A stretch of DNA of 64,000 nucleotides, from the NCBI GenBank assembly GCA_028287785.1, contig JAQBOZ010000020.1, forward strand, positions 66,738-130,737. The letters run 5' to 3'. Shown one piece after another: positions 14,695 through 58,393 of the stretch (positions are counted from its first letter, which is position 1; every line of letters begins with the position of its first letter). Both the position numbers and the translations under genes were made by a program. The notes beneath the pieces are model-generated. The model did not search any database, had not been told where the DNA came from, and saw only the letters and a list, made by a program, of their open reading frames with translations. This DNA comes from Chlorobiota bacterium. GTDB lineage: Bacteria > Bacteroidota > Ignavibacteria > OLB7.

Positions 14695-15234
14695 ATGAAC
14701 GCCGTCATCACGCTGCTGGATGAGGAATTCCAGCACCGGCTCAGAAAGATATGGTCCGGCCTCCGCAGGGATGTGGGAGGGACGGGGGTGGCAACAACCC
14801 CCTTTCCGCACTTCTCCTATCAGATCGCCGAACGCTACGATGTCGATTACGTCTCCGCGATCCTGGCGCGCGTGGCGGCCGGACAACGCCCGTTCGCCGT
14901 AAGGACGACCGGGCTCGGGATCTTCACCGGGAATCTCCCGGTCCTCTTCCTTTCACTGGTGAAGAGCATCGAGCTGATCAGGCTTCACGAGGAGATCTGG
15001 GAGGAGCTGCGCGGCGATGGCACCGACCTCTCCGATCTCTACCGGCCCGACCGCTGGACGCCCCATATCACGCTCTATCGAGGCTCCCCCGACAATCAGC
15101 GGCTCCCCGATATCGTCAGGGTTCTGAGCGGAGAGGACTTCACCGGCGAGATCATCGTCAACAACCTTTCGCTCATCTTCCGGAATGAGGGGGAGAAGGG
15201 GATTCGCGCGCGGCATCTGTTTCCCGACGCATAG
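14695..15234 (+). CDS. 2H phosphoesterase superfamily protein (LigT/ThpR-like 2'-5' RNA ligase family)
   Basis: Two H-x-[ST]-x motifs (PHFSY and PHITLY), about 180 aa. Confidence 0.6.
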   Translation: MNAVITLLDEEFQHRLRKIWSGLRRDVGGTGVATTPFPHFSYQIAERYDVDYVSAILARVAAGQRPFAVRTTGLGIFTGNLPVLFLSLVKSIELIRLHEEIWEELRGDGTDLSDLYRPDRWTPHITLYRGSPDNQRLPDIVRVLSGEDFTGEIIVNNLSLIFRNEGEKGIRARHLFPDA

Positions 15235-15257
15235 CCGGCGGGGAAGGGCGATCCCGT

Positions 15258-15567
15258 GAGTAGTGACTCAGGTTGGGATACGGCTCATGCTGTTCGGGCT
15301 CATCGAGGGCATTCGGCATCTCTCCTTCCAGCCCCATCGGGGCGTACCGGTTGTAGCGATGCCACGTCTTCGATGATCTGAAGCTCCATCGGTGAGTACC
15401 ATTTGGCAAGGATGCGGGGATGGTACGCTCCGATGGAGCTTGAGCGAAAAGATGGGAGCATCGTTGCTACAACCGGCGCGCTCCTACGGAGCTTGAAGAG
15501 TGAAGGAGGGATCGCCGCCCGATGATTGTTCAGCAGATGGAAGGCCGGATTCAACCTGAGTCACTAC
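15258..15567. repeat. About 310-bp palindromic MITE-like element, copy A, with 18-bp terminal inverted repeats
   Basis: TIRs gagtagtgactcaggttg (15258..15275) and caacctgagtcactactc (15550..15567). Internal nested hairpins: ccggttgtagc...gctacaaccgg outer stem and agctccatcgg...ccgatggagct inner stem. A second copy lies at 28232..28530. Confidence 0.6.
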
Positions 15568-15586
15568 TCAATTGGGAGAGAGAGGC

Positions 15587-17647
15587 TCAGGCCCCGGCCA
15601 TCGCGCCGCGCACCGATTCCAGCACCATCTCCGCCACATCCTTTACCACGACGTGGCCGTCGGGGTTGCTCGCCTTCACGCCATCGTTCATCATCGTCAT
15701 GCAGAACGGGCAGGCGGTGGCGACAATGTCAGCTCCGGTGGCGAGCGCCTCCTCGCTCCGCTCGATATTCACGCGCTTCCCCTCGGTCTCCTCCATGAAC
15801 ATCTGCCCGCCGCCGGCGCCGCAGCAGAAGCCACGGCTCTTGTTCCGCTCCATCTCCACCACCTCAAGGCCGGGGATATTCTCCAGCATGGCGCGCGGCG
15901 CCTCGTACTGGTTGTTGTAGCGACCCAGGTAGCAGCTATCGTGGAAGGTCACCTTTTCCTGCATCGGCGTCAGCGTCTTGAGCCGCCCGTCCTTCAGCAT
16001 GCCGTCGATAAAGGCGGTGTGATGAATCACCTCATACTCTCCGCCGAAATCGCCATACTCATTGAGCAGCGTATTGAAGCAGTGCGGGCAGCTCGTCACG
16101 ATCTTCTTCACGTTGTAGGCGTTCAGCGTCTCCACGTTCATCTGGATAAGGCTTTGCGCCAGATACTCGTTCCCCATGCGGCGCGCGGCATCGCCGTTGC
16201 ATTTCTCCTCGGTCCCCAGAATCCTGAACGATACGCCCGCGATCTCCATCAGCTCCGCGAACGCCCTTGTCACCTTCTTGTAGCGGTCATCGTAGCTGCC
16301 GGCGCATCCCACCCAGAAGAGGACATCGATATTCTCCCGTTCCTCCTCCGGCGTCTCCTCCATCGTCTTCACGTTGGTCCCCTCCGTCCAGTCCGCCCGC
16401 TCGCTGGCGGAGAAGGCCCACGGCGTGAAGTTGTTCTCCATGTTCTGGAACGCCGGCTGGATTTCCGCCGGGAACTCCGCCTGCATCATCACCAGCGAAC
16501 GGCGCAGATCGACAATGGCCGGCACATGCTCGATCATCACCGGGCACTCCTGAACGCACGCCATGCAGGTTGTGCACTGCCAGAGCGCCTCCGGGGAGAT
16601 GTAATCGCCGATCAGGCTCTTCGACATCACGTCGACGTTCCGGCTTTCATTCAGCCCGGCGTTGGTGGCCTCCCCCTCGCCGAGCGTGGCCGGCGTTTTC
16701 TCGCCAACCATCAGCGGCGCGCGGTCCATCGTGCGATGATGGGTCTGGATGATGATCTGCTTGGGATCGAGCACCTTGCCGGTGATATTTGCCGGACAGA
16801 CCGATGTACACCGGCCGCAGTGCGTGCAGGTCATGCCGTCCAGAAGCTGCTTCCATGTGAAATCCTCGACATCGCTCACACCGAACTTCTCAAGCCCCTC
16901 CTCCTCGAAGTCGATCTTCTGGAGCTTGTTCACGGTGCTCAGCGTCCCGAAGTAGACATTCGGGATGGAGGTCATCACGTGGAGATGCTTGGAGTACGGG
17001 AGGTAGTTCATAAAGCCGAGGATGGTGACGATATGGAGCCACCACATGCTCTCGTAGATCATCGCCGCCGTCCGGGGATCGCTCAACGCGCCGTGGAACA
17101 GCGCGCCGACCGGGCGGACGGCCCATCCGGACTCCACGCCGGTGCCGGCGCGCGCCGCGTTCATCAGGAGGAGCGATGTGACGATGATGCCGATCAGCCC
17201 GAGGATCAGCGTGGCATCCTTCTTCTCCGGAAGATCCCCCTGAAGTCGCTTCACCTTGGTGACGTACCGTCGCCAGAGCGCCCAAACCACCCCCACCAGG
17301 ATCAGCACGCAGAAGAGATCCTGCGAGATGGTGAGGACCGAGTAGATGGGTCCCAGCCAGCCGAGACCGCCGCCGGGGAACAGCCCCTCCAGCACCGACT
17401 CGACCACGGCGGCCAGCAGCACCAGAAAGCCCCAGAAGATGGCAGCGTGGATGGCGCCGGCAATCGGCTCCCGCATCAGCTTGGACTGACCGATGGCGAC
17501 CACGAGGACATTTTTTATCCGGGCGGCGATATCGCCGAAGCGGTTCTCCTTCTTTCCGATCCTGAGATAGCCGATGAGGCGCCGGGTGTTCCAGGCGATT
17601 CCCCCCATCGAGGCGATAAAGACGATCCAGAAAATGATATGCTTCAT
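15587..17647 (-). CDS. Membrane-anchored (Fe-S)-binding oxidoreductase: polytopic N-terminal domain fused to a 4Fe-4S ferredoxin and two CCG (HdrD/GlpC-type) domains
   Basis: N-terminal about 230 aa with 5-6 TM helices. CTHCGRCTSVCP and CTTCMACVQECP ferredoxin motifs. CCG-domain cysteines (WVGCAGSYD..., SCPHCFNTL, CCGAGGG, CPFCMTMM). Confidence 0.8.
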   Translation of the reverse strand: MKHIIFWIVFIASMGGIAWNTRRLIGYLRIGKKENRFGDIAARIKNVLVVAIGQSKLMREPIAGAIHAAIFWGFLVLLAAVVESVLEGLFPGGGLGWLGPIYSVLTISQDLFCVLILVGVVWALWRRYVTKVKRLQGDLPEKKDATLILGLIGIIVTSLLLMNAARAGTGVESGWAVRPVGALFHGALSDPRTAAMIYESMWWLHIVTILGFMNYLPYSKHLHVMTSIPNVYFGTLSTVNKLQKIDFEEEGLEKFGVSDVEDFTWKQLLDGMTCTHCGRCTSVCPANITGKVLDPKQIIIQTHHRTMDRAPLMVGEKTPATLGEGEATNAGLNESRNVDVMSKSLIGDYISPEALWQCTTCMACVQECPVMIEHVPAIVDLRRSLVMMQAEFPAEIQPAFQNMENNFTPWAFSASERADWTEGTNVKTMEETPEEERENIDVLFWVGCAGSYDDRYKKVTRAFAELMEIAGVSFRILGTEEKCNGDAARRMGNEYLAQSLIQMNVETLNAYNVKKIVTSCPHCFNTLLNEYGDFGGEYEVIHHTAFIDGMLKDGRLKTLTPMQEKVTFHDSCYLGRYNNQYEAPRAMLENIPGLEVVEMERNKSRGFCCGAGGGQMFMEETEGKRVNIERSEEALATGADIVATACPFCMTMMNDGVKASNPDGHVVVKDVAEMVLESVRGAMAGA

Positions 17648-24396: not shown

Positions 24397-25740
24397 ATGG
24401 CAATCACCAAGGATGATGTCCTGAGAATGGCTCAGGAGCAGAACGTACAGTTCGTGAACCTCCAGTTCACCGATATCGTCGGCACGCTGAAAGCGGTCAC
24501 CATCCCGGTCTGGAAGCTGGAAGATGCGATCGAGCAGAATGTCTGGTTCGATGGCTCGTCGATCGAGGGCTTTACCCGGATCCATGAGAGCGACATGTTC
24601 CTGAAGCTCGATCTTGACACGTTCGCCGTGATCCCCTGGACCAAGGGGGCAAGCTCCGGAACGCGCGCCCGTATCATCTGCGATGTCTACATGCCCGATG
24701 GAACGCCGTTCGAGGGGGACCCGCGCGGCATCCTGAAGCGCCAGCTCGAGCGCGCCAAGGCGCTTGGCTATGTCTTCAACGTCGGGCCGGAGCTGGAGTT
24801 CTTCCTCTTCAAGCGGAACGCCGAGGGAAAGCTGGCGCCGCTTCCGCACGATGAGGCCGGCTACTTCGATCAGACCACCGATGCCGCCACCGAGATCCGC
24901 CAGGAGATGACCTTCGCCCTCCAGGCGTTCGGCATCGATGTCGAGGCGCTTCATCACGAGGTCGCGGTCGGGCAGCACGAGATCGACTTCCGCTACTGCG
25001 ACGCCCTCACCGGCGCCGATGCATCGGTCACGCTCCGCTTCGCCCTCAAGTCGATCGCCGCGCAGCACGGCCTGCACGCCACCTTCATGCCGAAGCCGAT
25101 CGCCGGCATCAACGGCTCCGGCATGCACGTCCATCAGTCGCTCTTCACCACCGACGGGAAGAACCTGATGTTCGACAAGGACGGCCTCTACTCCCTCAGC
25201 GATTTCGCCCAGCATTTCATCGGCGGGCAGCTGCACCATATCAAGGCGATGAACGCCATCCTCAACCCGACGATCAACAGCTACAAGCGGCTCGTTGTGG
25301 GCTACGAGGCGCCGGTGAACGTGGCGTGGGGACAGAAGAACCGCTCGGTGCTGATCCGCGTGCCGCGCTACACGCCGGGACGTGAGAAGGCGGTTCGCGT
25401 GGAGATCCGCTGCCCCGATCCTGCCGCCAACCCCTATCTCGCCTTCGCAGTCCTCCTGGCCGCCGGCCTGGACGGCGTCGAGAAGAAGATCAAGCCGCCG
25501 AAGCCGGTGGAGGACGATATCTTCGAGATGGGACCGGAGGAGATCAAGGAGCGCGGCATCGGCGCGGTGGCGGAGAATCTGAAGGAGGCGCTGGAGGAGC
25601 TGTCGATCAACACGGTCGTCCGCGAGGCCATCGGCGAGTTCACCTTCCGGAAGTTCTACGAGGCGAAGATGAACGAGTGGGACGAGTACCGGATCGCGGT
25701 TTCGCAGTGGGAGCTGGATCGCTACATGGAGATCCACTGA
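24397..25740 (+). CDS. glnA: Glutamine synthetase type I
   Basis: GS-I family throughout (VNLQFTDIVG..., NVGPELEFFLF, HHEVAVGQHEIDF, MPKPIAGINGSGMHVHQSL, KNRSVLIRVP). ATG at 24397 is 10 nt after AGGAGA; the track ORF begins at a GTG at 24388. Confidence 0.9.
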   Translation: MAITKDDVLRMAQEQNVQFVNLQFTDIVGTLKAVTIPVWKLEDAIEQNVWFDGSSIEGFTRIHESDMFLKLDLDTFAVIPWTKGASSGTRARIICDVYMPDGTPFEGDPRGILKRQLERAKALGYVFNVGPELEFFLFKRNAEGKLAPLPHDEAGYFDQTTDAATEIRQEMTFALQAFGIDVEALHHEVAVGQHEIDFRYCDALTGADASVTLRFALKSIAAQHGLHATFMPKPIAGINGSGMHVHQSLFTTDGKNLMFDKDGLYSLSDFAQHFIGGQLHHIKAMNAILNPTINSYKRLVVGYEAPVNVAWGQKNRSVLIRVPRYTPGREKAVRVEIRCPDPAANPYLAFAVLLAAGLDGVEKKIKPPKPVEDDIFEMGPEEIKERGIGAVAENLKEALEELSINTVVREAIGEFTFRKFYEAKMNEWDEYRIAVSQWELDRYMEIH

Positions 25741-25884: not shown

Positions 25885-28104
25885 TCAATGCCGCACGATC
25901 ACCCTGCCACTCGCGGTGGCGCTTCCCGCGGTCACCCGGTAGAGATAGATCCCCGCTGGAAGCCCGCCCCCACGCAGCACCACCTCCCCTCCGGCGCCGC
26001 TCCCCTCCATCACCATCCTTCCCGTCGCATCGTACAGCCGTGCATGGACAGCCTCTTCGCCCGCGCGATCGAATCGGATGATGATAGTTCCATCGGCAAA
26101 GCGCGCGTCCCTGATTGTTATGCCGCCGGCGGCAATACCGGCATCATCCACCCCGGCGATGTGCTGAACGATCACCGGAACGTCGCGGGAGAGAGTGCGG
26201 TTGCCGGCCGCATCCAACGCGACGGCGGTCAGATCGTGGAGTCCCGGAAAGGTCGCGCCTGGGTCCCATGTCAGATCGTACGGCGCCGCGTGCATCGGAT
26301 CGCCAAGGTTTGCGCCGTCCAGCCTCACCTGCACGCTCGCGATCCCCACGTTATCGGTGGCGGCCACATGGATGATGATCGGCTTCGACACCTTCCCCCC
26401 GTAGGTCGGGCTGGTGATCTCCACGAGCGGCGGGATGGTGTCGCTGTTCGGCGCGATCAGTATCCGCACCGAATCGGAGAAGCTCCTGTTGCCCGCCTGA
26501 TCTCTTGCAATCGCCCGCAGCGTATGCCATCCCTGCGTCAGGGAGGCGGCATCAGCGTTGACCGCATACGGCTGCCCCATCACCTCTCCGCCGATATCGA
26601 CGCCATCGATCCTGAACTGCACGCCGGATATCGCCACGTTATCGGTGGCGGTCGCCTGAATCCTGAGGATGCTTCCGGTGATGGTCTCCCCATCCACAGG
26701 GGTTGTCATCGCAACGACCGGAGGGATCGTATCCCCCTGCCCGATCGGCGGATCGATGGCGCGGATCGTCATCACCCCCTTTCCCGGCATCATCGCCTCA
26801 AGCGTTCCCCCCTCCGGGATCGTCGTGTCCGGGGCATCCGCTCCAGCCGCGCCGGCGGTCGTATAGGAGATGCCGTAGTTCCCGCCGGGAAGCCCCGCCA
26901 CCTGCAACGTTCCGGTTGTATCGGCCTTTACGACGACGACATCCCGTCGGTCGGCGTTGATGAACGCGACCGGATCGAACGCCGGGTTGGTGGTCTCCAC
27001 ATCGATACGCACCGCGCCCCGATGCACATACCTGAAGTATTGCCGGAGATATCGCGCCGCCTTGCCCATCACCACGTCCGGCCTCCCGGCCGGGGCAGCA
27101 AAGAAGTACGCGGTCCCGTCATCGGTCCCCACGCGGGCCAGCCTCCCCAGTTGCCATGCGGAACTCGACGCCAGCTTGAGATCCTTGTGAAGCTCCTCAT
27201 AGCCGCCCCCCGCATGCTCCAGCATCGCCGGTTCCGCCGAGAAGCTCTCGGCGCGGGAGGCAATCGCCCGGAGTGTGCCGTCGAGCGTGGTCCCGTAGCG
27301 GTGATAGGAGAGCTCTCGAATGTGATCGCCTATCCCCCCGGCGGTTTCGATCATCCCGTTGATGTAATTGAGAGCCGCGGCGGCGTTCGAGGTGGATGGC
27401 GCGATAAAATCCCCCGGCTCGGCGAATCTCCGGGAGCAGGCGAGGATGGCATCGGCAAGCTGCGCCGGGCTCCAGCCGGCCAGATCGGGCTCCAGACAGA
27501 CCTCGATGGCGTCGGGAAGAAGGCCATACCGATGCTGGATATGCGACGTGACGGCGGCCATGAACTCCGCGTACTCCTCAGGGTTGGCGGCATGACGGAA
27601 GGGGGACGCGGAGGAATCGGTGTAGGCCAGATTGATGGAAAGCTCCTCCCCCTCGCTCTTCAGGCGATCGCGCAGCGGCATCACCAGCCTGTCGAAGACA
27701 TTATCGATCTCGGAGAACTGAAAGCGGGAGGAATCGATCATCGTGGGATCGTTGTTGTCGTTGACAACCTCGTAACGCTTTCTGCTCCATTCCGCAGCGG
27801 AGATCGCGCCGGATCGATAGAGCGACCAGTAGTCCACAGGGTTTTCGATGCCGCTCCGCGCTTCAACCCGGAGCCGGTTGATCCCCATGACGGCCGCGTC
27901 CTGGAACAGCTCCCCCGCATAGTCGAAGAACCGAAGCGTATCCTCCCCCGCGTGCGCGGTCGCCTCCCAGCCGTTGATCGTCTGGAACGTGCGGGCGGGG
28001 TTCAATGTGATCACCGCGCCGGCCGGGGTCTGCCCCGGCGATTGAACGCAGGAGACGGAGCCGAGGAGGAGAACAATCAGGAGATGGAGAGAAGATCGAT
28101 TCAT
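25885..28104 (-). CDS. Secreted multidomain protein: putative glycosidase-like catalytic domain, three bacterial Ig-like repeats, T9SS C-terminal sorting domain
   Basis: ATG at 28104 (MNRSSLHLLIVLLLGSVSCVQS signal peptide); the track ORF begins at 28302. Three about 95-aa repeats beginning TIPPVVAMTTP / TIPPLVEITSP. C-terminal Por tail (LYDATGRMV...LPAGIYLYRVTAGS...). Confidence 0.7.
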   Translation of the reverse strand: MNRSSLHLLIVLLLGSVSCVQSPGQTPAGAVITLNPARTFQTINGWEATAHAGEDTLRFFDYAGELFQDAAVMGINRLRVEARSGIENPVDYWSLYRSGAISAAEWSRKRYEVVNDNNDPTMIDSSRFQFSEIDNVFDRLVMPLRDRLKSEGEELSINLAYTDSSASPFRHAANPEEYAEFMAAVTSHIQHRYGLLPDAIEVCLEPDLAGWSPAQLADAILACSRRFAEPGDFIAPSTSNAAAALNYINGMIETAGGIGDHIRELSYHRYGTTLDGTLRAIASRAESFSAEPAMLEHAGGGYEELHKDLKLASSSAWQLGRLARVGTDDGTAYFFAAPAGRPDVVMGKAARYLRQYFRYVHRGAVRIDVETTNPAFDPVAFINADRRDVVVVKADTTGTLQVAGLPGGNYGISYTTAGAAGADAPDTTIPEGGTLEAMMPGKGVMTIRAIDPPIGQGDTIPPVVAMTTPVDGETITGSILRIQATATDNVAISGVQFRIDGVDIGGEVMGQPYAVNADAASLTQGWHTLRAIARDQAGNRSFSDSVRILIAPNSDTIPPLVEITSPTYGGKVSKPIIIHVAATDNVGIASVQVRLDGANLGDPMHAAPYDLTWDPGATFPGLHDLTAVALDAAGNRTLSRDVPVIVQHIAGVDDAGIAAGGITIRDARFADGTIIIRFDRAGEEAVHARLYDATGRMVMEGSGAGGEVVLRGGGLPAGIYLYRVTAGSATASGRVIVRH

Positions 28105-28231: not shown

Positions 28232-28530
28232 AGGTAGTGGCTCAATTTGAATCCAGCCCTCGGGTTGACGGCGCAATGATCCATCGACAATCCTCTGATC
28301 ACTCTTCAAGCTCCGTCAGGAGCGTGCCGGTTGTAGCAACGATATATCCGTTTCACACTCAAGCTCCAGAGGAGCGGACTATTCTGCCGGCATGCAAGGA
28401 TGGTTCGCTCCTCTGGAGCCTGGATTATGGAAGGCGTGGTGATACTACAACCGGCACGCCCCGATGGGGCTGGCAGATGCCGTATATGACTCCGGGCATC
28501 ATCCACAGCATCTCAACCTGAGTCACGACC
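28232..28530. repeat. About 300-bp palindromic MITE-like element, copy B
   Basis: Right TIR caacctgagtcacgaccc (28513..28530) and degenerate left TIR aggtagtggctcaatttg. Same nested-hairpin core as copy A (ccggttgtagc...ctacaaccgg; ctccagaggagcg...cgctcctctggag) with compensatory stem changes. Sits in the 5' region of gene 25885..28104. Confidence 0.55.
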
Positions 28531-28986
28531 CGACGGCAACAAAAAAGGCGCTCCGGTGAGGGAGCGCCCTGGTGATTACGATCACCGGAGGGGTCGCGCT
28601 TGTGATCGCTCAACCATGGGGGCCGACATCATTCATGTATCGCCGCTGAATCAGGCTCGGGGTTACCCCTGGAAGCCTCCCCGGTCACCGTCGATCCATC
28701 GATGCCGGCCGGAGATGGTGAGCTTGCGCGGAGAAACCCTGGGGGGTAGGGCTCCATCGGGGAGGCCACGAGCACAGATGATCCATCAGCGCTACAATCC
28801 ATCAGTCGTTTCAGGGGGGCTGAACAAACGGCCTTGTATTCCTAACCAGCGCGCCCACCGAAACCTTACATCGCATCGCAACGCCCACAGCCCGCGCAAC
28901 ACAACGAACGAGGGGGCACCCGCATTCCGCGCGAGCGCCCCCTCCGAATAATCCCAATCGCCAAAGAATGAACCGACGCAAAACGA

Positions 28987-39439: not shown

Positions 39440-39709
39440 GCAAGACCATGATGACCCGGCGAGTGTTTCAGACGGCGCGCGGGGCGATGGCCCGCGCACC
39501 AGCTATTGCGCCCCTCCGGGGCTTGGGAGGGAGGACAACGCCGCGGATGATATTCTTCAGCGTAGCTCGATGCCACAGACTGTTCAAGGACGATCTCAAC
39601 TGCAAGGCGGCCAAGCCTGAGCGAACCTGAGCGAATGAGCCGTCCTCCCGGACGCCGCAGTGAGCGACGGTGAAGGCCAACGCAGCAGATGACGTCCTTC
39701 AACAGTCTG
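39440..39709. repeat. Composite intergenic repeat: REP-like hairpin module (39440..39575) plus a 134-bp miniature element with 17-bp TIRs (39576..39709)
   Basis: Module I holds gcgcggggcgatggcccgcgc and gcgcccctccggggc hairpins and recurs near 46803 and 47613. Module II is bounded by cagactgttcaaggacg / cgtccttcaacagtctg and recurs inverted at 63371..63492. It has a 12-bp internal tandem duplication (cctgagcgaa cctgagcgaa). Confidence 0.55.
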
Positions 39710-46774: not shown

Positions 46775-46915
46775 TGCCGGGGGCGGTGCCCAGGGTACCA
46801 GGGATTGCGCCCCTCCGGGGCCCAATACAGCGAGTTGCTCCACTGGCTACGAGGCATATGAAGGAATATACAGTGACATTCGCGGCGGATATTGTCGCAG
46901 GATATGCCAGGGGCC
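46775..46915. repeat. REP-like intergenic repeat (module I family copy)
   Basis: Contains attgcgcccctccggggc (46803..46820) and gcggcggatattgtcgcaggatatgcc, related to the 39440 and 47585 copies. Confidence 0.4.
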
Positions 46916-47584: not shown

Positions 47585-47700
47585 TGACGCGGGGCATCGC
47601 CCCGCGCACCGGGGATTGCGCCCCTCCGGGGCTTGAGAAGGCGGGCGGGCGTGGCGGATGAGATCCTTCAAGAGTCGGTTAGCACGAAGTTTGATGCGTG
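47585..47700. repeat. REP-like intergenic repeat (module I family copy)
   Basis: gacgcggggcatcgccccgcgcacc ggggattgcgcccctccggggcttgag..., two stem-loops. Closest to the 39440 copy. Confidence 0.4.
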
Positions 47701-49870: not shown

Positions 49871-50665
49871 GTGGAACTACTCGACGCAATCCGCAACAGA
49901 CGGACAACCAACTCGCGATTTCTCGAAAAGCCTCTCTCCGACGACCATATACGGACCATCATCGAGGCGGCGAGCTATGCCCCCAGCCACTTCAACTCGC
50001 AGCCCTGGCGGTTTGTGCTGATACGGAGCCGTGAGGGGCGCGACAGGCTGGGGAAGATCGCCGGGCGATCGATGCGGGCAGTGATGGAGAAAGGGGAGTT
50101 CTGGAAGCGCTATCTGAAGTATTTCCGATTCAGCAGAGAGGAGATCGACAAGAGCGGCGATGGGATTTATATCGATAACATGCCGGCGCCGCTGCGGCCG
50201 TTTATCCGCTATATCTTCTCGGAGAAGGGGGCCGAGGTGATGAACAAGCTCCGCGTCCCCTACATCCTGGCGATTGATTCCAAGCGGCTGATCACCACAT
50301 CGCCATTGATCCTGGCCGTGCTGCTGACGAAGGAGGAGTACAGGAAGGGGGAGCTTTCCGGGATGTATTCCATGCTGGCGCTCGGCATGGCGATCGAGAA
50401 CATCTGGCTGACCGCCAACTCCCTCGGCGTCGGCGTGCAGTTCATCTCCCTCCCGATGGAGGCCGGCGGCGAGCACTGGGCGGAATGCGTGGCGATGATC
50501 GATCCGCCGGAGAACTACGAGGTGATAGCCCTCTTCCGCCTTGGCTACGTGGACCCCGATGCCAAACGTCCGACGATCGACTGGTCCAGCAAGCAGCGGA
50601 AGGATATCTCGCAATTCTGTTTTGATGAGACATTCGGCAACGGATGGCGGTCGGGGCGGGTTTGA
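49871..50665 (+). CDS. Nitroreductase-family protein
   Basis: SHFNSQPWRFVLI motif. The track start (TTG at 49805) overlaps the NUDIX gene. An in-frame GTG at 49871 gives the typical nitroreductase N-terminus (M)ELLDAIRNRRTTNSRF, so the start was placed there by inference. Confidence 0.7.
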   Translation: MELLDAIRNRRTTNSRFLEKPLSDDHIRTIIEAASYAPSHFNSQPWRFVLIRSREGRDRLGKIAGRSMRAVMEKGEFWKRYLKYFRFSREEIDKSGDGIYIDNMPAPLRPFIRYIFSEKGAEVMNKLRVPYILAIDSKRLITTSPLILAVLLTKEEYRKGELSGMYSMLALGMAIENIWLTANSLGVGVQFISLPMEAGGEHWAECVAMIDPPENYEVIALFRLGYVDPDAKRPTIDWSSKQRKDISQFCFDETFGNGWRSGRV

Positions 50666-50678
50666 AACCCGCCCCGAC
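50650..50678. repeat. 29-nt GC-rich hairpin, copy 1 (gtcggggcgggtttgaaacccgccccgac); probable bidirectional terminator or REP
   Basis: 11-bp perfect stem. Overlaps the nitroreductase stop codon. Near-identical copy at 51236..51264. Confidence 0.5.
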
Positions 50679-50694
50679 GGCGCTTCGCTCCATA

Positions 50695-51198
50695 TCATCC
50701 GCCATACGTAAACAGATTCTCCGGATGCTCCTCCACCCGGCCGGTGCTGATGATATGCCGCACCGTCACGCCGCGAGCCGCCAGCGCGTCGGCAACCCAG
50801 AAGCGATGGCAGTGGCTGGGGTCGGACTCCGCGCACATCAGCGCCACGCGCCGCTCCGATGCCAGACGAAGCGCCCGCTCCATCCCCCGCTTGAACGGCT
50901 CGGTCCCCATGTAGCCCGCAAACCCGCGCGAACGCTCGCTGCACGACTTCGCGCGGTCGATCACCGCCTGCGGTGGCTTCACCCCGCCCAGTTCCGTGCA
51001 ATGCTCGTAGATAAGCCCATGACCGGGGATCATCGCCTCCATCTCCTCCCTGTTGAACTGCGGGTTGTACCGTGAGTATGGTATCCTCCTGATATCGAGC
51101 AGCAGCTCGATCCCGTTCTCCTTCAGCAGCTCCACCAGCTCATCCCGTGTCCGCGTTGAATGGCCTATCGTGAATATCTCAAGTTCCTGCCGGCTCAT
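50695..51198 (-). CDS. DUF488-family protein
   Basis: ATG at 51198; the track ORF begins upstream at 51270. MSRQELEIFTIGHSTRTRDELVELLKENGIELLLDIRRIPYS matches the DUF488 N-terminal pattern (IYTIGHS...LVDVR..P.S). Confidence 0.7.
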   Translation of the reverse strand: MSRQELEIFTIGHSTRTRDELVELLKENGIELLLDIRRIPYSRYNPQFNREEMEAMIPGHGLIYEHCTELGGVKPPQAVIDRAKSCSERSRGFAGYMGTEPFKRGMERALRLASERRVALMCAESDPSHCHRFWVADALAARGVTVRHIISTGRVEEHPENLFTYGG

Positions 51199-51235
51199 GC
51201 GCTTTGTATTGATTGAATTGATCGTTAGCGTCGGC

Positions 51236-51264
51236 GTCGGGGCGGGTTTAAAACCCGCCCCGAC
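51236..51264. repeat. 29-nt GC-rich hairpin, copy 2 (gtcggggcgggtttaaaacccgccccgac)
   Basis: Perfect palindrome. Lies upstream of the DUF488 start, between it and valS. Confidence 0.5.
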
Positions 51265-51426
51265 GTACACGACATCGACGTGCTGCTACTGACTCCACTA
51301 TAACGAATGAAACGCCCGCAACGTCTGAAAAACGTTCCGGACGGATGAAAAATCGCGCTGGTTTCAACCTGTGCGGCGCTACCTTCCGTACAGGCTTCCG
51401 CCGTATATTCTTCGCCATAATAATTC

Positions 51427-55313: not shown

Positions 55314-55337
55314 CGCTATATTTTCGTATATTTGTGC

Positions 55338-56279
55338 ATGGAAAAGGAAAACTACACACCGCGCACCCTTCAGGAAGCAATCGTCCACTACTCCAACCCG
55401 GATAATGCACTCGCATTTATGATCCGTCTTCGGTGGCCGGACGGTATCACGTGCCCCCGTTGCGGATCGTGCGAGCATAGCTTTTTGACGACGCGCCGCG
55501 TGTGGAAGTGCAAGGGATGTAAGAAGCAGTTCTCCGTTAAGGTCGGCACCATCTTCGAGGATTCTCCGCTCGGTCTGAACACGTGGCTTGCCGCCGTGTG
55601 GCTCATCACGAACGCCAAGAACGGCGTAAGCTCATGCGAGATTGCGCGGGCACTTGGCATCACACAAAAGAGCGCGTGGTTCGTCTTGCATCGTATCCGC
55701 ATCGCGATGGAAACGGGCACCATTGAGAAGCTGAAGGGCCAGGTTGAAGCCGATGAAACGTACATCGGCGGCAAGTACGGGAACATGCACAGGATCAAGC
55801 GCGCTCAAAAGGAGCAGGGACGCGGCGCTGTCGGGAAGGTTATCGTGATGGGGTTCTTGGAGCGTGACGGCGCGGTACGGGCAAAGGTCGTGAAGAGCAT
55901 CAAGAAGACCATCTTGCACGCGGAAGTCCGGCTGAACGTCGAAGCTGGTACGGAGTTGCTTACCGACAACCTTGCGAGCTACGAGGGCTTGGAGCCGGAA
56001 TACACGCACGAGAGCGTCAACCACGCCGCTGAACAGTATGTACGGGGCCATGTGCATACCAACGGCATAGAGAACTTCTGGAGCTTGCTCAAGCGGACGC
56101 TGAAGGGCACGTATGCGCAGGTTGAGTCCCATCACCTTCAGGCATATCTTGACGAACAGATATTGCGGTTCAATCTTCGCAAGGGAACGGATAAGAGCCG
56201 GTTCTTGCGCGTGGTTGGTGGAGTGTCGGGAAAGAGACTAACTTACAAGCAGTTGATTGGTCGGGGTGGTAACATCTAG
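55338..56279 (+). CDS. IS1595-family transposase (N-terminal zinc-ribbon plus ISXO2-like DDE domain)
   Basis: CPRCGS...CKGCKKQFSVKVGTIFEDS zinc ribbon. DETYIGGK and downstream DDE-domain residues. ATG at 55338; the track ORF begins at a TTG at 55332. Confidence 0.85.
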   Translation: MEKENYTPRTLQEAIVHYSNPDNALAFMIRLRWPDGITCPRCGSCEHSFLTTRRVWKCKGCKKQFSVKVGTIFEDSPLGLNTWLAAVWLITNAKNGVSSCEIARALGITQKSAWFVLHRIRIAMETGTIEKLKGQVEADETYIGGKYGNMHRIKRAQKEQGRGAVGKVIVMGFLERDGAVRAKVVKSIKKTILHAEVRLNVEAGTELLTDNLASYEGLEPEYTHESVNHAAEQYVRGHVHTNGIENFWSLLKRTLKGTYAQVESHHLQAYLDEQILRFNLRKGTDKSRFLRVVGGVSGKRLTYKQLIGRGGNI

Positions 56280-56290
56280 GAGGTACGGCA

Positions 56291-56464
56291 ATGGATAAGG
56301 AAGGTGATGATAAGAATCATCAATCAGAGGAATACACTCGCTTTGAACAGGCGATGCGAACGATTCTAGGGGCACCGAAGAAGAAGGTTGACGCGAAGAT
56401 GGAGGAATTAAAGAAGAAGCGCAAAGGGATAAATAAAAAAGGCAGTACAGATAAGGATAGATAA
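56291..56464 (+). CDS. Small basic hypothetical protein (57 aa) inside the IS element
   Basis: ATG 12 nt after the transposase stop. Lys-rich. Not in the supplied ORF track; read directly from the sequence. Confidence 0.3.
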   Translation: MDKEGDDKNHQSEEYTRFEQAMRTILGAPKKKVDAKMEELKKKRKGINKKGSTDKDR

Positions 56465-56499
56465 AGGGTTCATATAGAGCATTCGCTCAATATGCGCAC

Positions 56500-57123
56500 T
56501 TATTTCTTTGTGTTCAATGCACGAATTCGCTCTGTCAGTTTATATACCCCAGTTGATGGATTCCCGCCAATGGTGCTATGTCTCTCGTGCATCTTGTCTA
56601 ATTCAGAGGCCCTTGTAACTGCAAGCTCATAGTTTGGCTGAATCTGATCAAGTGGAATGAGCTTTACATAACCCGGCAAGTGTGTTTTGCAATGGGATTG
56701 AACCACTCCTCTATCAATATAAGCTCGGTGATCGGCAAAATGCAGGTATACCCAAAGCTCAAAGCAAGGATTCGATATTGCTAGCTGTATGTTGTGCGCA
56801 TTAGCCTGCTGACATGCATCTGCAATATTAGGATGCTCATCGACATCGAAGCAGCACCATACTTCATCATACTTTAGATTATTATCCTTTTCTCTTCTTG
56901 CTTCCTGTTCCGCTCTTTTCTTCTCAGCTACAGCTGCTTCAACTAGGGCTTTTGGTACCATACCACATTCGCCAATCTTGATCTCAACGAGCCGGTTACG
57001 TTCCATCCTGCAAAAAGCAATGAAATACTCACGTTCGGTAACAACTCCTTCGCAGAGAATTAGCAGTCTTTTTTGAACATCCCGAAATGGTCTTCGGCGA
57101 GCAAGGCTAGCTTTTCGCTTCAC
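56500..57123 (-). CDS. RloB-like (AbiLii-like) protein
   Basis: RloB-family N-terminus ...RLLILCEGVVTEREYF, central DEVWCCFDVDEH, and LAISNPCFELWVYLHF. GTG start at 57123 overlaps the upstream ATPase gene by 17 bp. Confidence 0.75.
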   Translation of the reverse strand: MKRKASLARRRPFRDVQKRLLILCEGVVTEREYFIAFCRMERNRLVEIKIGECGMVPKALVEAAVAEKKRAEQEARREKDNNLKYDEVWCCFDVDEHPNIADACQQANAHNIQLAISNPCFELWVYLHFADHRAYIDRGVVQSHCKTHLPGYVKLIPLDQIQPNYELAVTRASELDKMHERHSTIGGNPSTGVYKLTERIRALNTKK

Positions 57124-58393
57124 TCTCTCCCTCCACTATCTTACGGAACAATGAAGATGATCCAACAAATGGAATTGCACCATATCTACCTTGGAGGTAT
57201 CCACGCCGCAAGTTCTCGTTTGGGCGAGTCTTAAAGTCTGACAGCGGATAGAGGTCGGTCGCGCCTGAAGCGTCCTTCTCCGTAAACCAAATTTGATCTC
57301 TCCGAAGTAAATCGGGATCAAGTAGCGTTGAATCGTGTGTACTGAAAATTAGTTGAGCGCCATTATCATTCTCATCAGCATTAACAAGTTCGATGATGTG
57401 CCGAGCTACAATAGGATGCAAACTTGCTTCGAGTTCATCAACAAGAAGAACGCCGCCATTTTCAATCTGGTTAATTAACGGCCCTAGAAGGGATAGGTAA
57501 GCTCGTGTCCCATCGGATTCATCTTCAAGAGGAAGCGATACTGAATCTCCACTTCCGGTAGAATGGCGTAACGTTGCAGAGGGGATCATTTGTCCCTTCA
57601 TTGTAGTCGGTGGCGCGTGAATAATATCTGCCATCTGAAAATACGCCTTCATATGCTCTGCCATATCCCTATCGGCTGTATCCATCCCTACTATGCCAAG
57701 ATCGGCCATTGTAAGTAGTTTGGCAATGATTTCACCATACTCTGGCTTCTTGCATCGATCCAATGTGTGCAATCTATGCAGCTCACGCGTCTCATTTCGA
57801 AGGAATAGAACTTGACGCTGAAACCAGTTATATACTGGAACAAGCTCCTCGTTGCCATTCTGTACAGCGGCCGACAGAAACAAGCTATTTGTCCGAGTGA
57901 GCTTTGTTAACGAAGCACGTCCGGCAATTCGGCGTTTGAATTCAAACTGATTACCAGGTGACCGTCTAAACCATTCCTGCCGCACCTTGTTAGGATAAGC
58001 ATATAGCCACTCTGAAAGTATTGAGGTTGAATCCTGTTCGAATCCATACTTGTAGCGTACACCGCCTATGATAGCGTCAACTTCAAAGGCTGATGGGGCA
58101 CCGTTGAATGCAGGGTCTAATTTGAACGGGAAGTATGGGATTGGCCCATCAACGCTCCAGTCTTTATGGGAGTGGACTACAGCTAGCCGCATATAGGATA
58201 AGGCCCGAAGCATATTGGTCTTGCCTGAAGCGTTAGGCCCGTAAATAGCGGCTGCTTTGACTAAGTTGACGCCAATACGCTCCTTGGTGGGAATAATCGA
58301 CATGACCCCCCCTTGCAGAGGGCTAGCTACCAAGGTTAGTTCTTTCTCGTCTCGGATGGACCTATAGTTGCGGACGCGAAAGCTAATAAGCAT
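57107..58393 (-). CDS. AAA-family ATPase (AAA_21/AAA_15 type; RloA/AbiLi-like)
   Basis: Walker A YGPNASGKTN. ABC/SMC-like Walker B/D-loop VLLVDELEASLHP. About 428 aa. Immediately upstream of and overlapping the RloB-like gene. Confidence 0.8.
   Translation of the reverse strand: MLISFRVRNYRSIRDEKELTLVASPLQGGVMSIIPTKERIGVNLVKAAAIYGPNASGKTNMLRALSYMRLAVVHSHKDWSVDGPIPYFPFKLDPAFNGAPSAFEVDAIIGGVRYKYGFEQDSTSILSEWLYAYPNKVRQEWFRRSPGNQFEFKRRIAGRASLTKLTRTNSLFLSAAVQNGNEELVPVYNWFQRQVLFLRNETRELHRLHTLDRCKKPEYGEIIAKLLTMADLGIVGMDTADRDMAEHMKAYFQMADIIHAPPTTMKGQMIPSATLRHSTGSGDSVSLPLEDESDGTRAYLSLLGPLINQIENGGVLLVDELEASLHPIVARHIIELVNADENDNGAQLIFSTHDSTLLDPDLLRRDQIWFTEKDASGATDLYPLSDFKTRPNENLRRGYLQGRYGAIPFVGSSSLFRKIVEGESEAKS

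Follow-up and report, generated by a model that had tools for sequence, protein, structure and literature searches.

A palindromic repeat, probably mobile and non-autonomous, at two intergenic sites in an uncultured Kapabacteria genome

Two copies of a palindromic element lie in the window (the whole 64-kb stretch of DNA analyzed here), which derives from the MAG of an uncultured Kapabacteria ("Chlorobi bacterium"). Copy A sits, as the earlier note had it, between convergent genes for a 2'-5' RNA-ligase-like protein (14695 to 15234, + strand) and a CCG/Fer4 Fe-S oxidoreductase (15587 to 17647, − strand). Copy B begins ~5 nt beyond the T-run of the terminator of an LVIVD gene; a gene for a Big_7 surface protein probably starts at 28104, which puts copy B ~128 nt upstream of it. 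Gene 3' ends and the gaps between convergent genes are typical sites of MITEs and REPs (PMC10969869, PMC3733652). A distance of only 12.7 kb separates the copies, which are mutually inverted; the second had been placed at 28232 to 28530 beforehand, which is close to the limits found here (Table 1), with its reverse orientation unmentioned.

The limits of copy A agree among the A/B alignment, nhmmer, the end of homology to relatives (15567), and the ends of Logan contigs. Its terminal inverted repeats (TIRs) are perfect over 16 nt and, with the flanking TGA (15257 to 15259) and TCA (15568 to 15570), form a perfect inverted repeat of 19 nt (15257 to 15275 and 15552 to 15570; repeat search); by chance, ~1e-4 perfect repeats of this length within 400 nt would be expected in 64 kb. 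The sequences quoted in the earlier note are present; its TIRs had been given as 18 bp long, with a left arm at 15258 to 15275 and a right arm (15550 to 15567) that was 2 nt off. The termini of copy B are complementary at 12 of 16 positions. The copies are 79% identical by mean column identity (MAFFT) and 70% identical in a global alignment, and their flanks share no similarity up to the element edges. GC content is 55 to 57% in the element and 60% in the window. Neither pattern searches nor an nhmmer profile of A and B found a third or partial copy in the 64-kb window.

Table 1. Positions in the window of the palindromic element, its terminal repeats and internal modules, and one neighboring feature
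Feature	Position	Strand	Description
Copy A, palindromic element	15260..15567	.	308 bp, GTAG...CTAC
Left TIR, copy A	15260..15275	+	GTAGTGACTCAGGTTG; repeat search
Module M1	15331..15343	+	GCCCC ATC GGGGC, then CCGGTTGTAGC
Conserved 10-mer, left arm of middle stem	15348..15357	+	CCGGTTGTAG; invariant in 4/4 half-elements
Module M2	15383..15395	+	GCTCC ATC GGTGA, degenerate; in left arm of inner stem
Module M3	15427..15439	-	GCTCC GAT GGAGC; in right arm of inner stem
Conserved 10-mer, right arm of middle stem	15467..15476	-	CTACAACCGG
Module M4	15480..15492	-	GCTCC TAC GGAGC
Right TIR, copy A	15552..15567	-	CAACCTGAGTCACTAC; repeat search
Copy B, element in reverse orientation relative to A	28234..28529	.	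296 bp, 70-79% identity to A
Terminal repeat, copy B	28234..28249	+	GTAGTGGCTCAATTTG; degenerate
Module, copy B	28310..28323	+	GCTCC GTCA GGAGC
Module, copy B	28363..28375	+	GCTCC AGA GGAGC; inner stem arm
Module, copy B	28407..28419	-	GCTCC TCT GGAGC; inner stem arm
Module, copy B	28458..28470	-	GCCCC GAT GGGGC
Terminal repeat, copy B	28514..28529	-	CAACCTGAGTCACGAC
Intrinsic-terminator-like hairpin and T-run of upstream LVIVD gene	28535..28570	-	Context, outside the element

The nested inverted repeats around a loop containing caaggatg, reported in the earlier note, were recovered by repeat search (outer and inner stems). In copy A the middle stem joins CCGGTTGTAGC to GCTACAACCGG (15348 to 15357 and 15467 to 15476) and is surrounded by a 33-nt imperfect inverted pair; the inner stem (15378 to 15402 and 15420 to 15444; 25 nt, 88% complementary) carries caaggatg in its loop. 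The element contains four copies of a 20-nt module, TCAAGCYCC-N3/4-GGRGCG, itself a 5-bp hairpin, in the order -> -> <- <-. The invariant CCGGTTGTAGC comes after the outer module pair, CCAT and the central loop come after the inner pair, and M2/M3 and M1/M4 are inverted pairs that make the nested stems, as in the inverted pairs of REPINs. Hairpins of the form GCYCC-N3-4-GGRGC number 10 in the window (shuffle mean, 1.4), all of them inside this element or a second repeat family.

Each strand of each copy is predicted to fold into a nearly continuous hairpin of ~150 bp. RNA folding gave −185.8 kcal/mol for copy A (z = −10.3 versus shuffles) and −149.6 kcal/mol for copy B (z = −7.75), and DNA folding of copy A gave −89.8 kcal/mol (z = −11.4 versus shuffles); in the predicted single-stranded DNA fold of copy A, M1 and M4 extrude as separate mini-hairpins. 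Watson-Crick complementarity between the arms is 78% in A and 74% in B.

The second, short repeat family that carries the module lies at 39470 to 39570, 46777 to 46833, and 47585 to 47680, all on the + strand. It consists of a 12-bp-stem hairpin, GGTGCGCGGGGC-N3-GCCCCGCGCACC, followed by the mini-hairpin module ATTGCGCCCCTCCGGGGCTTG as in the 308-bp element; its two full copies are 82% identical, and its folding z-scores are unremarkable. Elsewhere in the window, two perfect, near-identical 30-nt palindromes, GTCGGGGCGGGTTT(G/A)AAACCCGCCCCGAC, stand 586 bp apart (50650 to 50679 and 51236 to 51265) and bracket a DUF488 gene (50695 to 51270, − strand); these may be bidirectional terminators or another repeat.

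A protein-coding reading was ruled out: no ORF is common to A and B (the longest ORFs share just a pentapeptide), and the indels between the copies are not multiples of three. A six-frame chimeric peptide query, aimed at spurious ORFs called within other copies, matched nothing among 5.8 billion called proteins.

The earlier note had pointed to an inner-stem difference, CCATCGG/CCGATGG in copy A against CCAGAGG/CCTCTGG in copy B, and this is present in the A/B alignment with pairing retained in both. The two double changes are adjacent (15389/15433 and 15390/15432) and are located in the triplets that form the loops of M2 and M3. The conclusion drawn from them, that a secondary structure is under selection, found no statistical support. 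On the minimum-free-energy structure of copy A, 115 pairs were comparable with B: 71 were unchanged, 10 had changed on one side with pairing kept and 22 on one side with pairing broken, and both sides had changed in 4 pairs that still pair and in 8 that do not. Double changes are therefore kept paired in 4 of 12 cases, at or below the chance value (~0.44), so that the covariation check gave no signal of RNA-level selection. RNAalifold and pair counting on the A/B consensus are circular, because the structure is derived from the same two sequences. Mismatches of the G:T and A:C types stand at 8:4 in A and 9:9 in B, with no clear transcribed-strand signature, and since there is no strand bias nothing in them indicates selection at the RNA level.

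What the inner-stem changes do record is that the two arms altered in concert, for which selection, subfamily history, or quasipalindrome template switching could each be the cause; arm-to-arm template switching in quasipalindromes yields "compensatory" changes without selection (PMC7202029). The complementarity of the arms is about that expected after neutral decay of a better palindrome, and asymmetries common to A and B (GCCCC in M1 versus GCTCC in M4) indicate that the ancestor was already imperfect.

It is very unlikely, on this evidence, that the two copies are paralogues of a structured noncoding RNA gene, or of an element acting in RNA as a bidirectional terminator or mRNA stabilizer, held by selection on RNA structure. 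The long hairpin has been retained in both copies despite 20 to 30% divergence, the two adjacent double changes keep their pairing, copy A takes the place of the terminator that relatives have after the CCG gene, and the strand in A orientation folds slightly better than its complement (−178.9 versus −163.6 kcal/mol for A and −148.2 versus −142.2 kcal/mol for B). Against this, both the double changes and the one-sided ones (22 broken, 10 kept) behave as chance would have them, the mismatches carry no clear transcribed-strand signature, and the arms, at 74 to 78% complementarity, look as a better palindrome would after neutral decay. The copies are also oppositely oriented relative to their neighbor genes, neither copy has a sigma-70-like promoter within or next to it, and the element hairpin is not followed by a U-tract. 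The Rfam search proposed earlier returned no family at the gathering score anywhere in the window, and at an E value of ≤10 the two copies matched only hairpins of the miRNA-precursor type, at no more than a third of the gathering score. Near-perfect 150-bp duplexes are a typical feature of mobile palindromes and not of functional RNAs, which we also count against an RNA function.

The surroundings of the copies were compared with those in relatives. Contigs L031 and L041 of two sister-species MAGs (GCA_039917235.1, GCA_040007115.1) align to the window at ~90% nucleotide identity (BLASTN) through the CCG gene and 19 to 20 nt past its stop, to exactly position 15567, and then stop; the junction at 15567/15568 corresponds to L031:7047 and L041:3145. 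Instead of the element, an ordinary terminator hairpin comes after the CCG gene in four relatives. That terminator is absent from the window, and the genes beyond the CCG junction differ among lineages: the order CCG-NDH2-GH44 is conserved on one side of the copy A junction, with unrelated genes on the other. Judged from these alignments, the CCG locus is a variable, one-sided junction rather than a clean empty site. Either recombination between copies or an insertion accompanied by rearrangement would fit the synteny break at copy A. At the Big_7 locus no empty site was found, the only close relative's contig beginning inside the Big_7 gene, and exact protein sequence searches for further loci that might hold empty sites gave no match. 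No TSD, a feature named in the earlier note, was found at copy A (flanks cccgtga and tcaattg) or copy B (flanks ctggcag and ccgacgg); it could be masked by a recombinant origin of A or by decay at an old copy B.

Assembly graphs point to further copies in the source sample. Logan contigs from this sample (SRR13312994) end at 15289 and resume at 15538 around copy A, which places the breaks exactly k−1 = 30 nt inside 15260 and 15567. That the Logan assembly has the k−1 property of a k = 31 de Bruijn graph follows from two of its contigs, L037 and L038, which overlap by exactly 30 nt (25069 to 25098). In such a graph, a unitig that enters a repeat from a unique flank halts after k−1 bases of it, at the point where more than one k-mer precedes the next, whereas presence/absence polymorphism would break the contig at the element boundary itself rather than 30 nt inside it. 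From these breaks at the two ends of A, we infer that the sample contains further copies whose terminal 30 nt are identical. At copy B the Logan contig stops 52 nt inside the element (28285), a position that fits a privately mutated B terminus. The junction of L037 and L038 itself lies inside a glutamine synthetase gene, where the graph branch is probably strain variation in the sample; contig breaks arise without repeats too.

These contigs, and the surroundings, also bear on a non-mobile origin, in which a palindromic intergenic region underwent a single local inverted segmental duplication and its arms were homogenized by template switching. The copies are indeed inverted and 12.7 kb apart, no copy turned up in any public collection searched, and template-switch correction of quasipalindromes can mimic compensation (PMC7202029). 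We nonetheless regard such an origin as highly improbable: the dissimilarity of the flanks extends to the very boundaries of the element, relatives without the element have the genes between A and B in conserved, syntenic form, and the Logan breaks (30 nt inside each end of copy A, 52 nt inside copy B) demand that the sample contain other sequences with those 30-mers. Both a purely local duplication and an RNA gene or terminator are less likely than a mobile repeat.

The collections were searched for relatives of the element. Among GTDB species representatives, of which the source MAG is evidently not one, the pattern CCGGTTGTAG-N95-125-CTACAACCGG retrieved no copy. Its matches (Chthoniobacterales REPIN-like repeats and palindromes in Myxococcales, Marinimicrobium, and Olsenella) were rejected as unrelated palindromes with the 10-mer and have no BLASTN similarity to the element. 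JGI metagenome scans gave no copy (the lone match, L039, is AT-rich and arose by chance), and none was found in IMG/VR scans or, by BLASTN, in plasmids and phages. An nhmmer profile of A and B, run on the window and all fetched loci, including ~100 kb of relatives' DNA, found only A, B, and the Logan fragments. The family appears, from these searches, to be lineage restricted; absence from short-read MAGs is weak evidence, because these systematically lose such repeats.

The Chthoniobacterales (Verrucomicrobiota) MAGs retrieved in this way (L001-L003, L006, L010, L011, L014, L017, L018, L020-L022, L024, L025, and L027-L029) hold a canonical-looking REPIN family, whose inverted GTAG-tagged REPs (CCGGTTGTAGCCACGGCCCTGTGGGCCGT...) make up a core of 123 nt; one of these MAGs has at least 11 loci and another at least 8. 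All that this family has in common with the element in the window is the 10-mer CCGGTTGTAG, by which the search pattern had selected it. Other unrelated palindromes with CCGGTTGTAG...CTACAACCGG came from Myxococcales (L005/L008), Marinimicrobium (L012), Olsenella (L013), and Chthoniobacterales (L009 and L015), and probably surface since GTAG-tagged repeats are common.

The sole transposase in the window is of the IS1595 family (55332 to 56279, + strand; Zn-ribbon and DDE_Tnp_IS1595 domains), and it was ruled out as a partner, its surroundings having no similarity to the element ends. No IS with ends matching the element TIRs and no RAYT gene lie within the 64-kb window. The IS1595 gene adjoins a low-GC (46%) island with genes for a RloB-like protein (56500 to 57123, − strand) and an AAA_21 ATPase (57107 to 58393, − strand), the whole spanning 55332 to 58393; the latter two form a defense-system-like pair that was probably acquired horizontally.

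Taken together, the element is probably a MITE- or REPIN-like palindromic repeat that is non-coding, mobile but non-autonomous, and restricted to this Kapabacteria lineage. Several observations argue for this: sharp ends common to the copies, both orientations, unrelated flanks, the lack of coding content, absence in the sister species, and intergenic sites at gene 3' ends, together with the perfect TIR, the strong folding, the breaks in the Logan graph, and the confinement of the module to repeats. The suggestion that a MITE-like element has spread is thereby upheld, resting on the unrelated flanks, opposite orientations, consistent ends, absence in two relatives, and graph breaks. On the other side stand the observation of two copies only in the window, the lack of a TSD, of a partner transposase, and of a clean empty site, the lack of copies in other collections, and the GC content of 55 to 57%. 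The family is most likely one that has not been described before, of an ordinary known kind, and we assign it to no named family.

Among known systems with long hairpin potential are the prokaryotic MITEs (Correia/CREE of Neisseria, ERIC/IRU of enterobacteria, and Nezha/Chunjie-type elements). Like these, the element is non-coding and, at 308 and 296 bp, shorter than 500 bp, has a TIR (16 nt) within the range of ~4 to 30 nt, is intergenic and often so at gene 3' ends, occurs in both orientations, and would give transcripts that form stable hairpins (PMC10969869). Unlike them, it shows no visible TSD and no parent IS with matching ends, has a GC content of 55 to 57% where MITEs are typically AT-rich, contains fourfold internal modules, and resembles nothing in the collections searched.

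With REPINs (RAYT-mobilized inverted REP doublets) and GTAG-tagged REP dimers the element shares inverted GC-rich hairpin pairs that form a larger hairpin, GTAG/CTAC at its ends, the lack of a TSD, and a position downstream of or between convergent genes (PMC3337134, PMC3733652). It differs in being 3 to 4 times longer, with four modules rather than two, stems of 5 bp, a GTAG that does not abut the stem, no RAYT found within the window, and a copy number that seems low. BIMEs of E. coli are mosaic clusters of short palindromic REP/PU units and conserved linker motifs in extragenic 3' regions. The element resembles them in combining several short palindromic units with conserved linker motifs at an extragenic 3' position; BIME units, unlike these, alternate and have no defined TIRs, whereas the element is ordered -> -> <- <-, has 16-nt TIRs, and is copied as one piece. 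The TIR repeats that accompany tyrosine transposases, or "TIRtrons" (Di Nocera et al. 2013), likewise are long, partly self-complementary inverted repeats distinct from canonical REPs; they form moderately abundant families, arranged in dimers or clusters. By definition they flank a TIRYT gene, and no gene of this type could be linked to the element.

A more specific sub-case of the mobile-repeat reading is a REPIN/BIME-like composite, in which the 20-nt module would be the genome's REP-like unit and the 308-bp element a nested double doublet, with a domesticated HUH tyrosine transposase (RAYT or TIRYT-like) moving it in the form of a single-stranded hairpin and leaving no TSD. We hold this as a tentative possibility, with the balance against it. 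It accords with the GTAG start and CTAC end and a second GTAG/CTAC pair within the invariant CCGGTTGTAGC, with the invisibility of any TSD, with inverted pairs of short hairpin modules that recur in a second repeat family, and with the strong predicted single-stranded DNA fold in which M1 and M4 stand as separate mini-hairpins. REP dimers 20 to 100 bp apart and downstream of genes are typical of REPs, and TIR-type repeats tied to tyrosine transposases have been described already (PMC3733652). A REP is defined, however, as a palindrome of 20 to 40 bp that bears an unpaired GTAG (or CGTC) tag immediately next to one of its ends (PMC3733652), and the ~20-nt module lacks this: the foot of the module stem reads GTAC, GTGC, GCGC, or TTGC, and GTAG itself is found at the ends of the element and at a distance of 10 nt from the module. 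The module stems are just 5 bp, the 308 bp are about three times the usual REPIN size, the window has no RAYT gene, and REPs usually occur in tens to hundreds of copies, against 10 modules in 64 kb, all within larger repeats. That the element is a hierarchical "REPIN of REPINs," copied as one folded hairpin by a single-strand transposase of the RAYT/TIRYT type, seems unlikely.

Returning to the mobile repeat in general, a transposase encoded elsewhere in the genome would recognize the TIRs or hairpins and move the element. The enzyme could be of the DDE type, as for a classical MITE, which the TIRs and size fit (PMC10969869), or a single-strand HUH/RAYT-like enzyme, as suggested by the terminal GTAG, the hairpins, and the absence of a visible TSD. 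Insertion would take place at gene 3' ends, beside terminators or replacing them; where the element is cotranscribed, it would place a long hairpin at the 3' end of the mRNA and possibly alter termination or stability. Copies might also serve as substrates for recombination, which the synteny break at copy A fits.

On present evidence, then, the element is an ordinary, lineage-restricted small mobile repeat. If the "REPIN of REPINs" were true, REP-RAYT biology would extend to the Bacteroidota-Chlorobiota-Ignavibacteriota group, and the element would show the stepwise assembly of short hairpin units into larger mobile palindromes; likewise, were its modular build without target duplication owed to a hairpin-recognizing single-strand transposase, it would be a case outside Proteobacteria of REP-like units building larger mobile palindromes. 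Its main value lies in annotation: it stands for a repeat family at which short-read assemblies of this lineage break, its position is also that of a break in synteny, and it may alter 3'-end processing of the two neighboring gene pairs.
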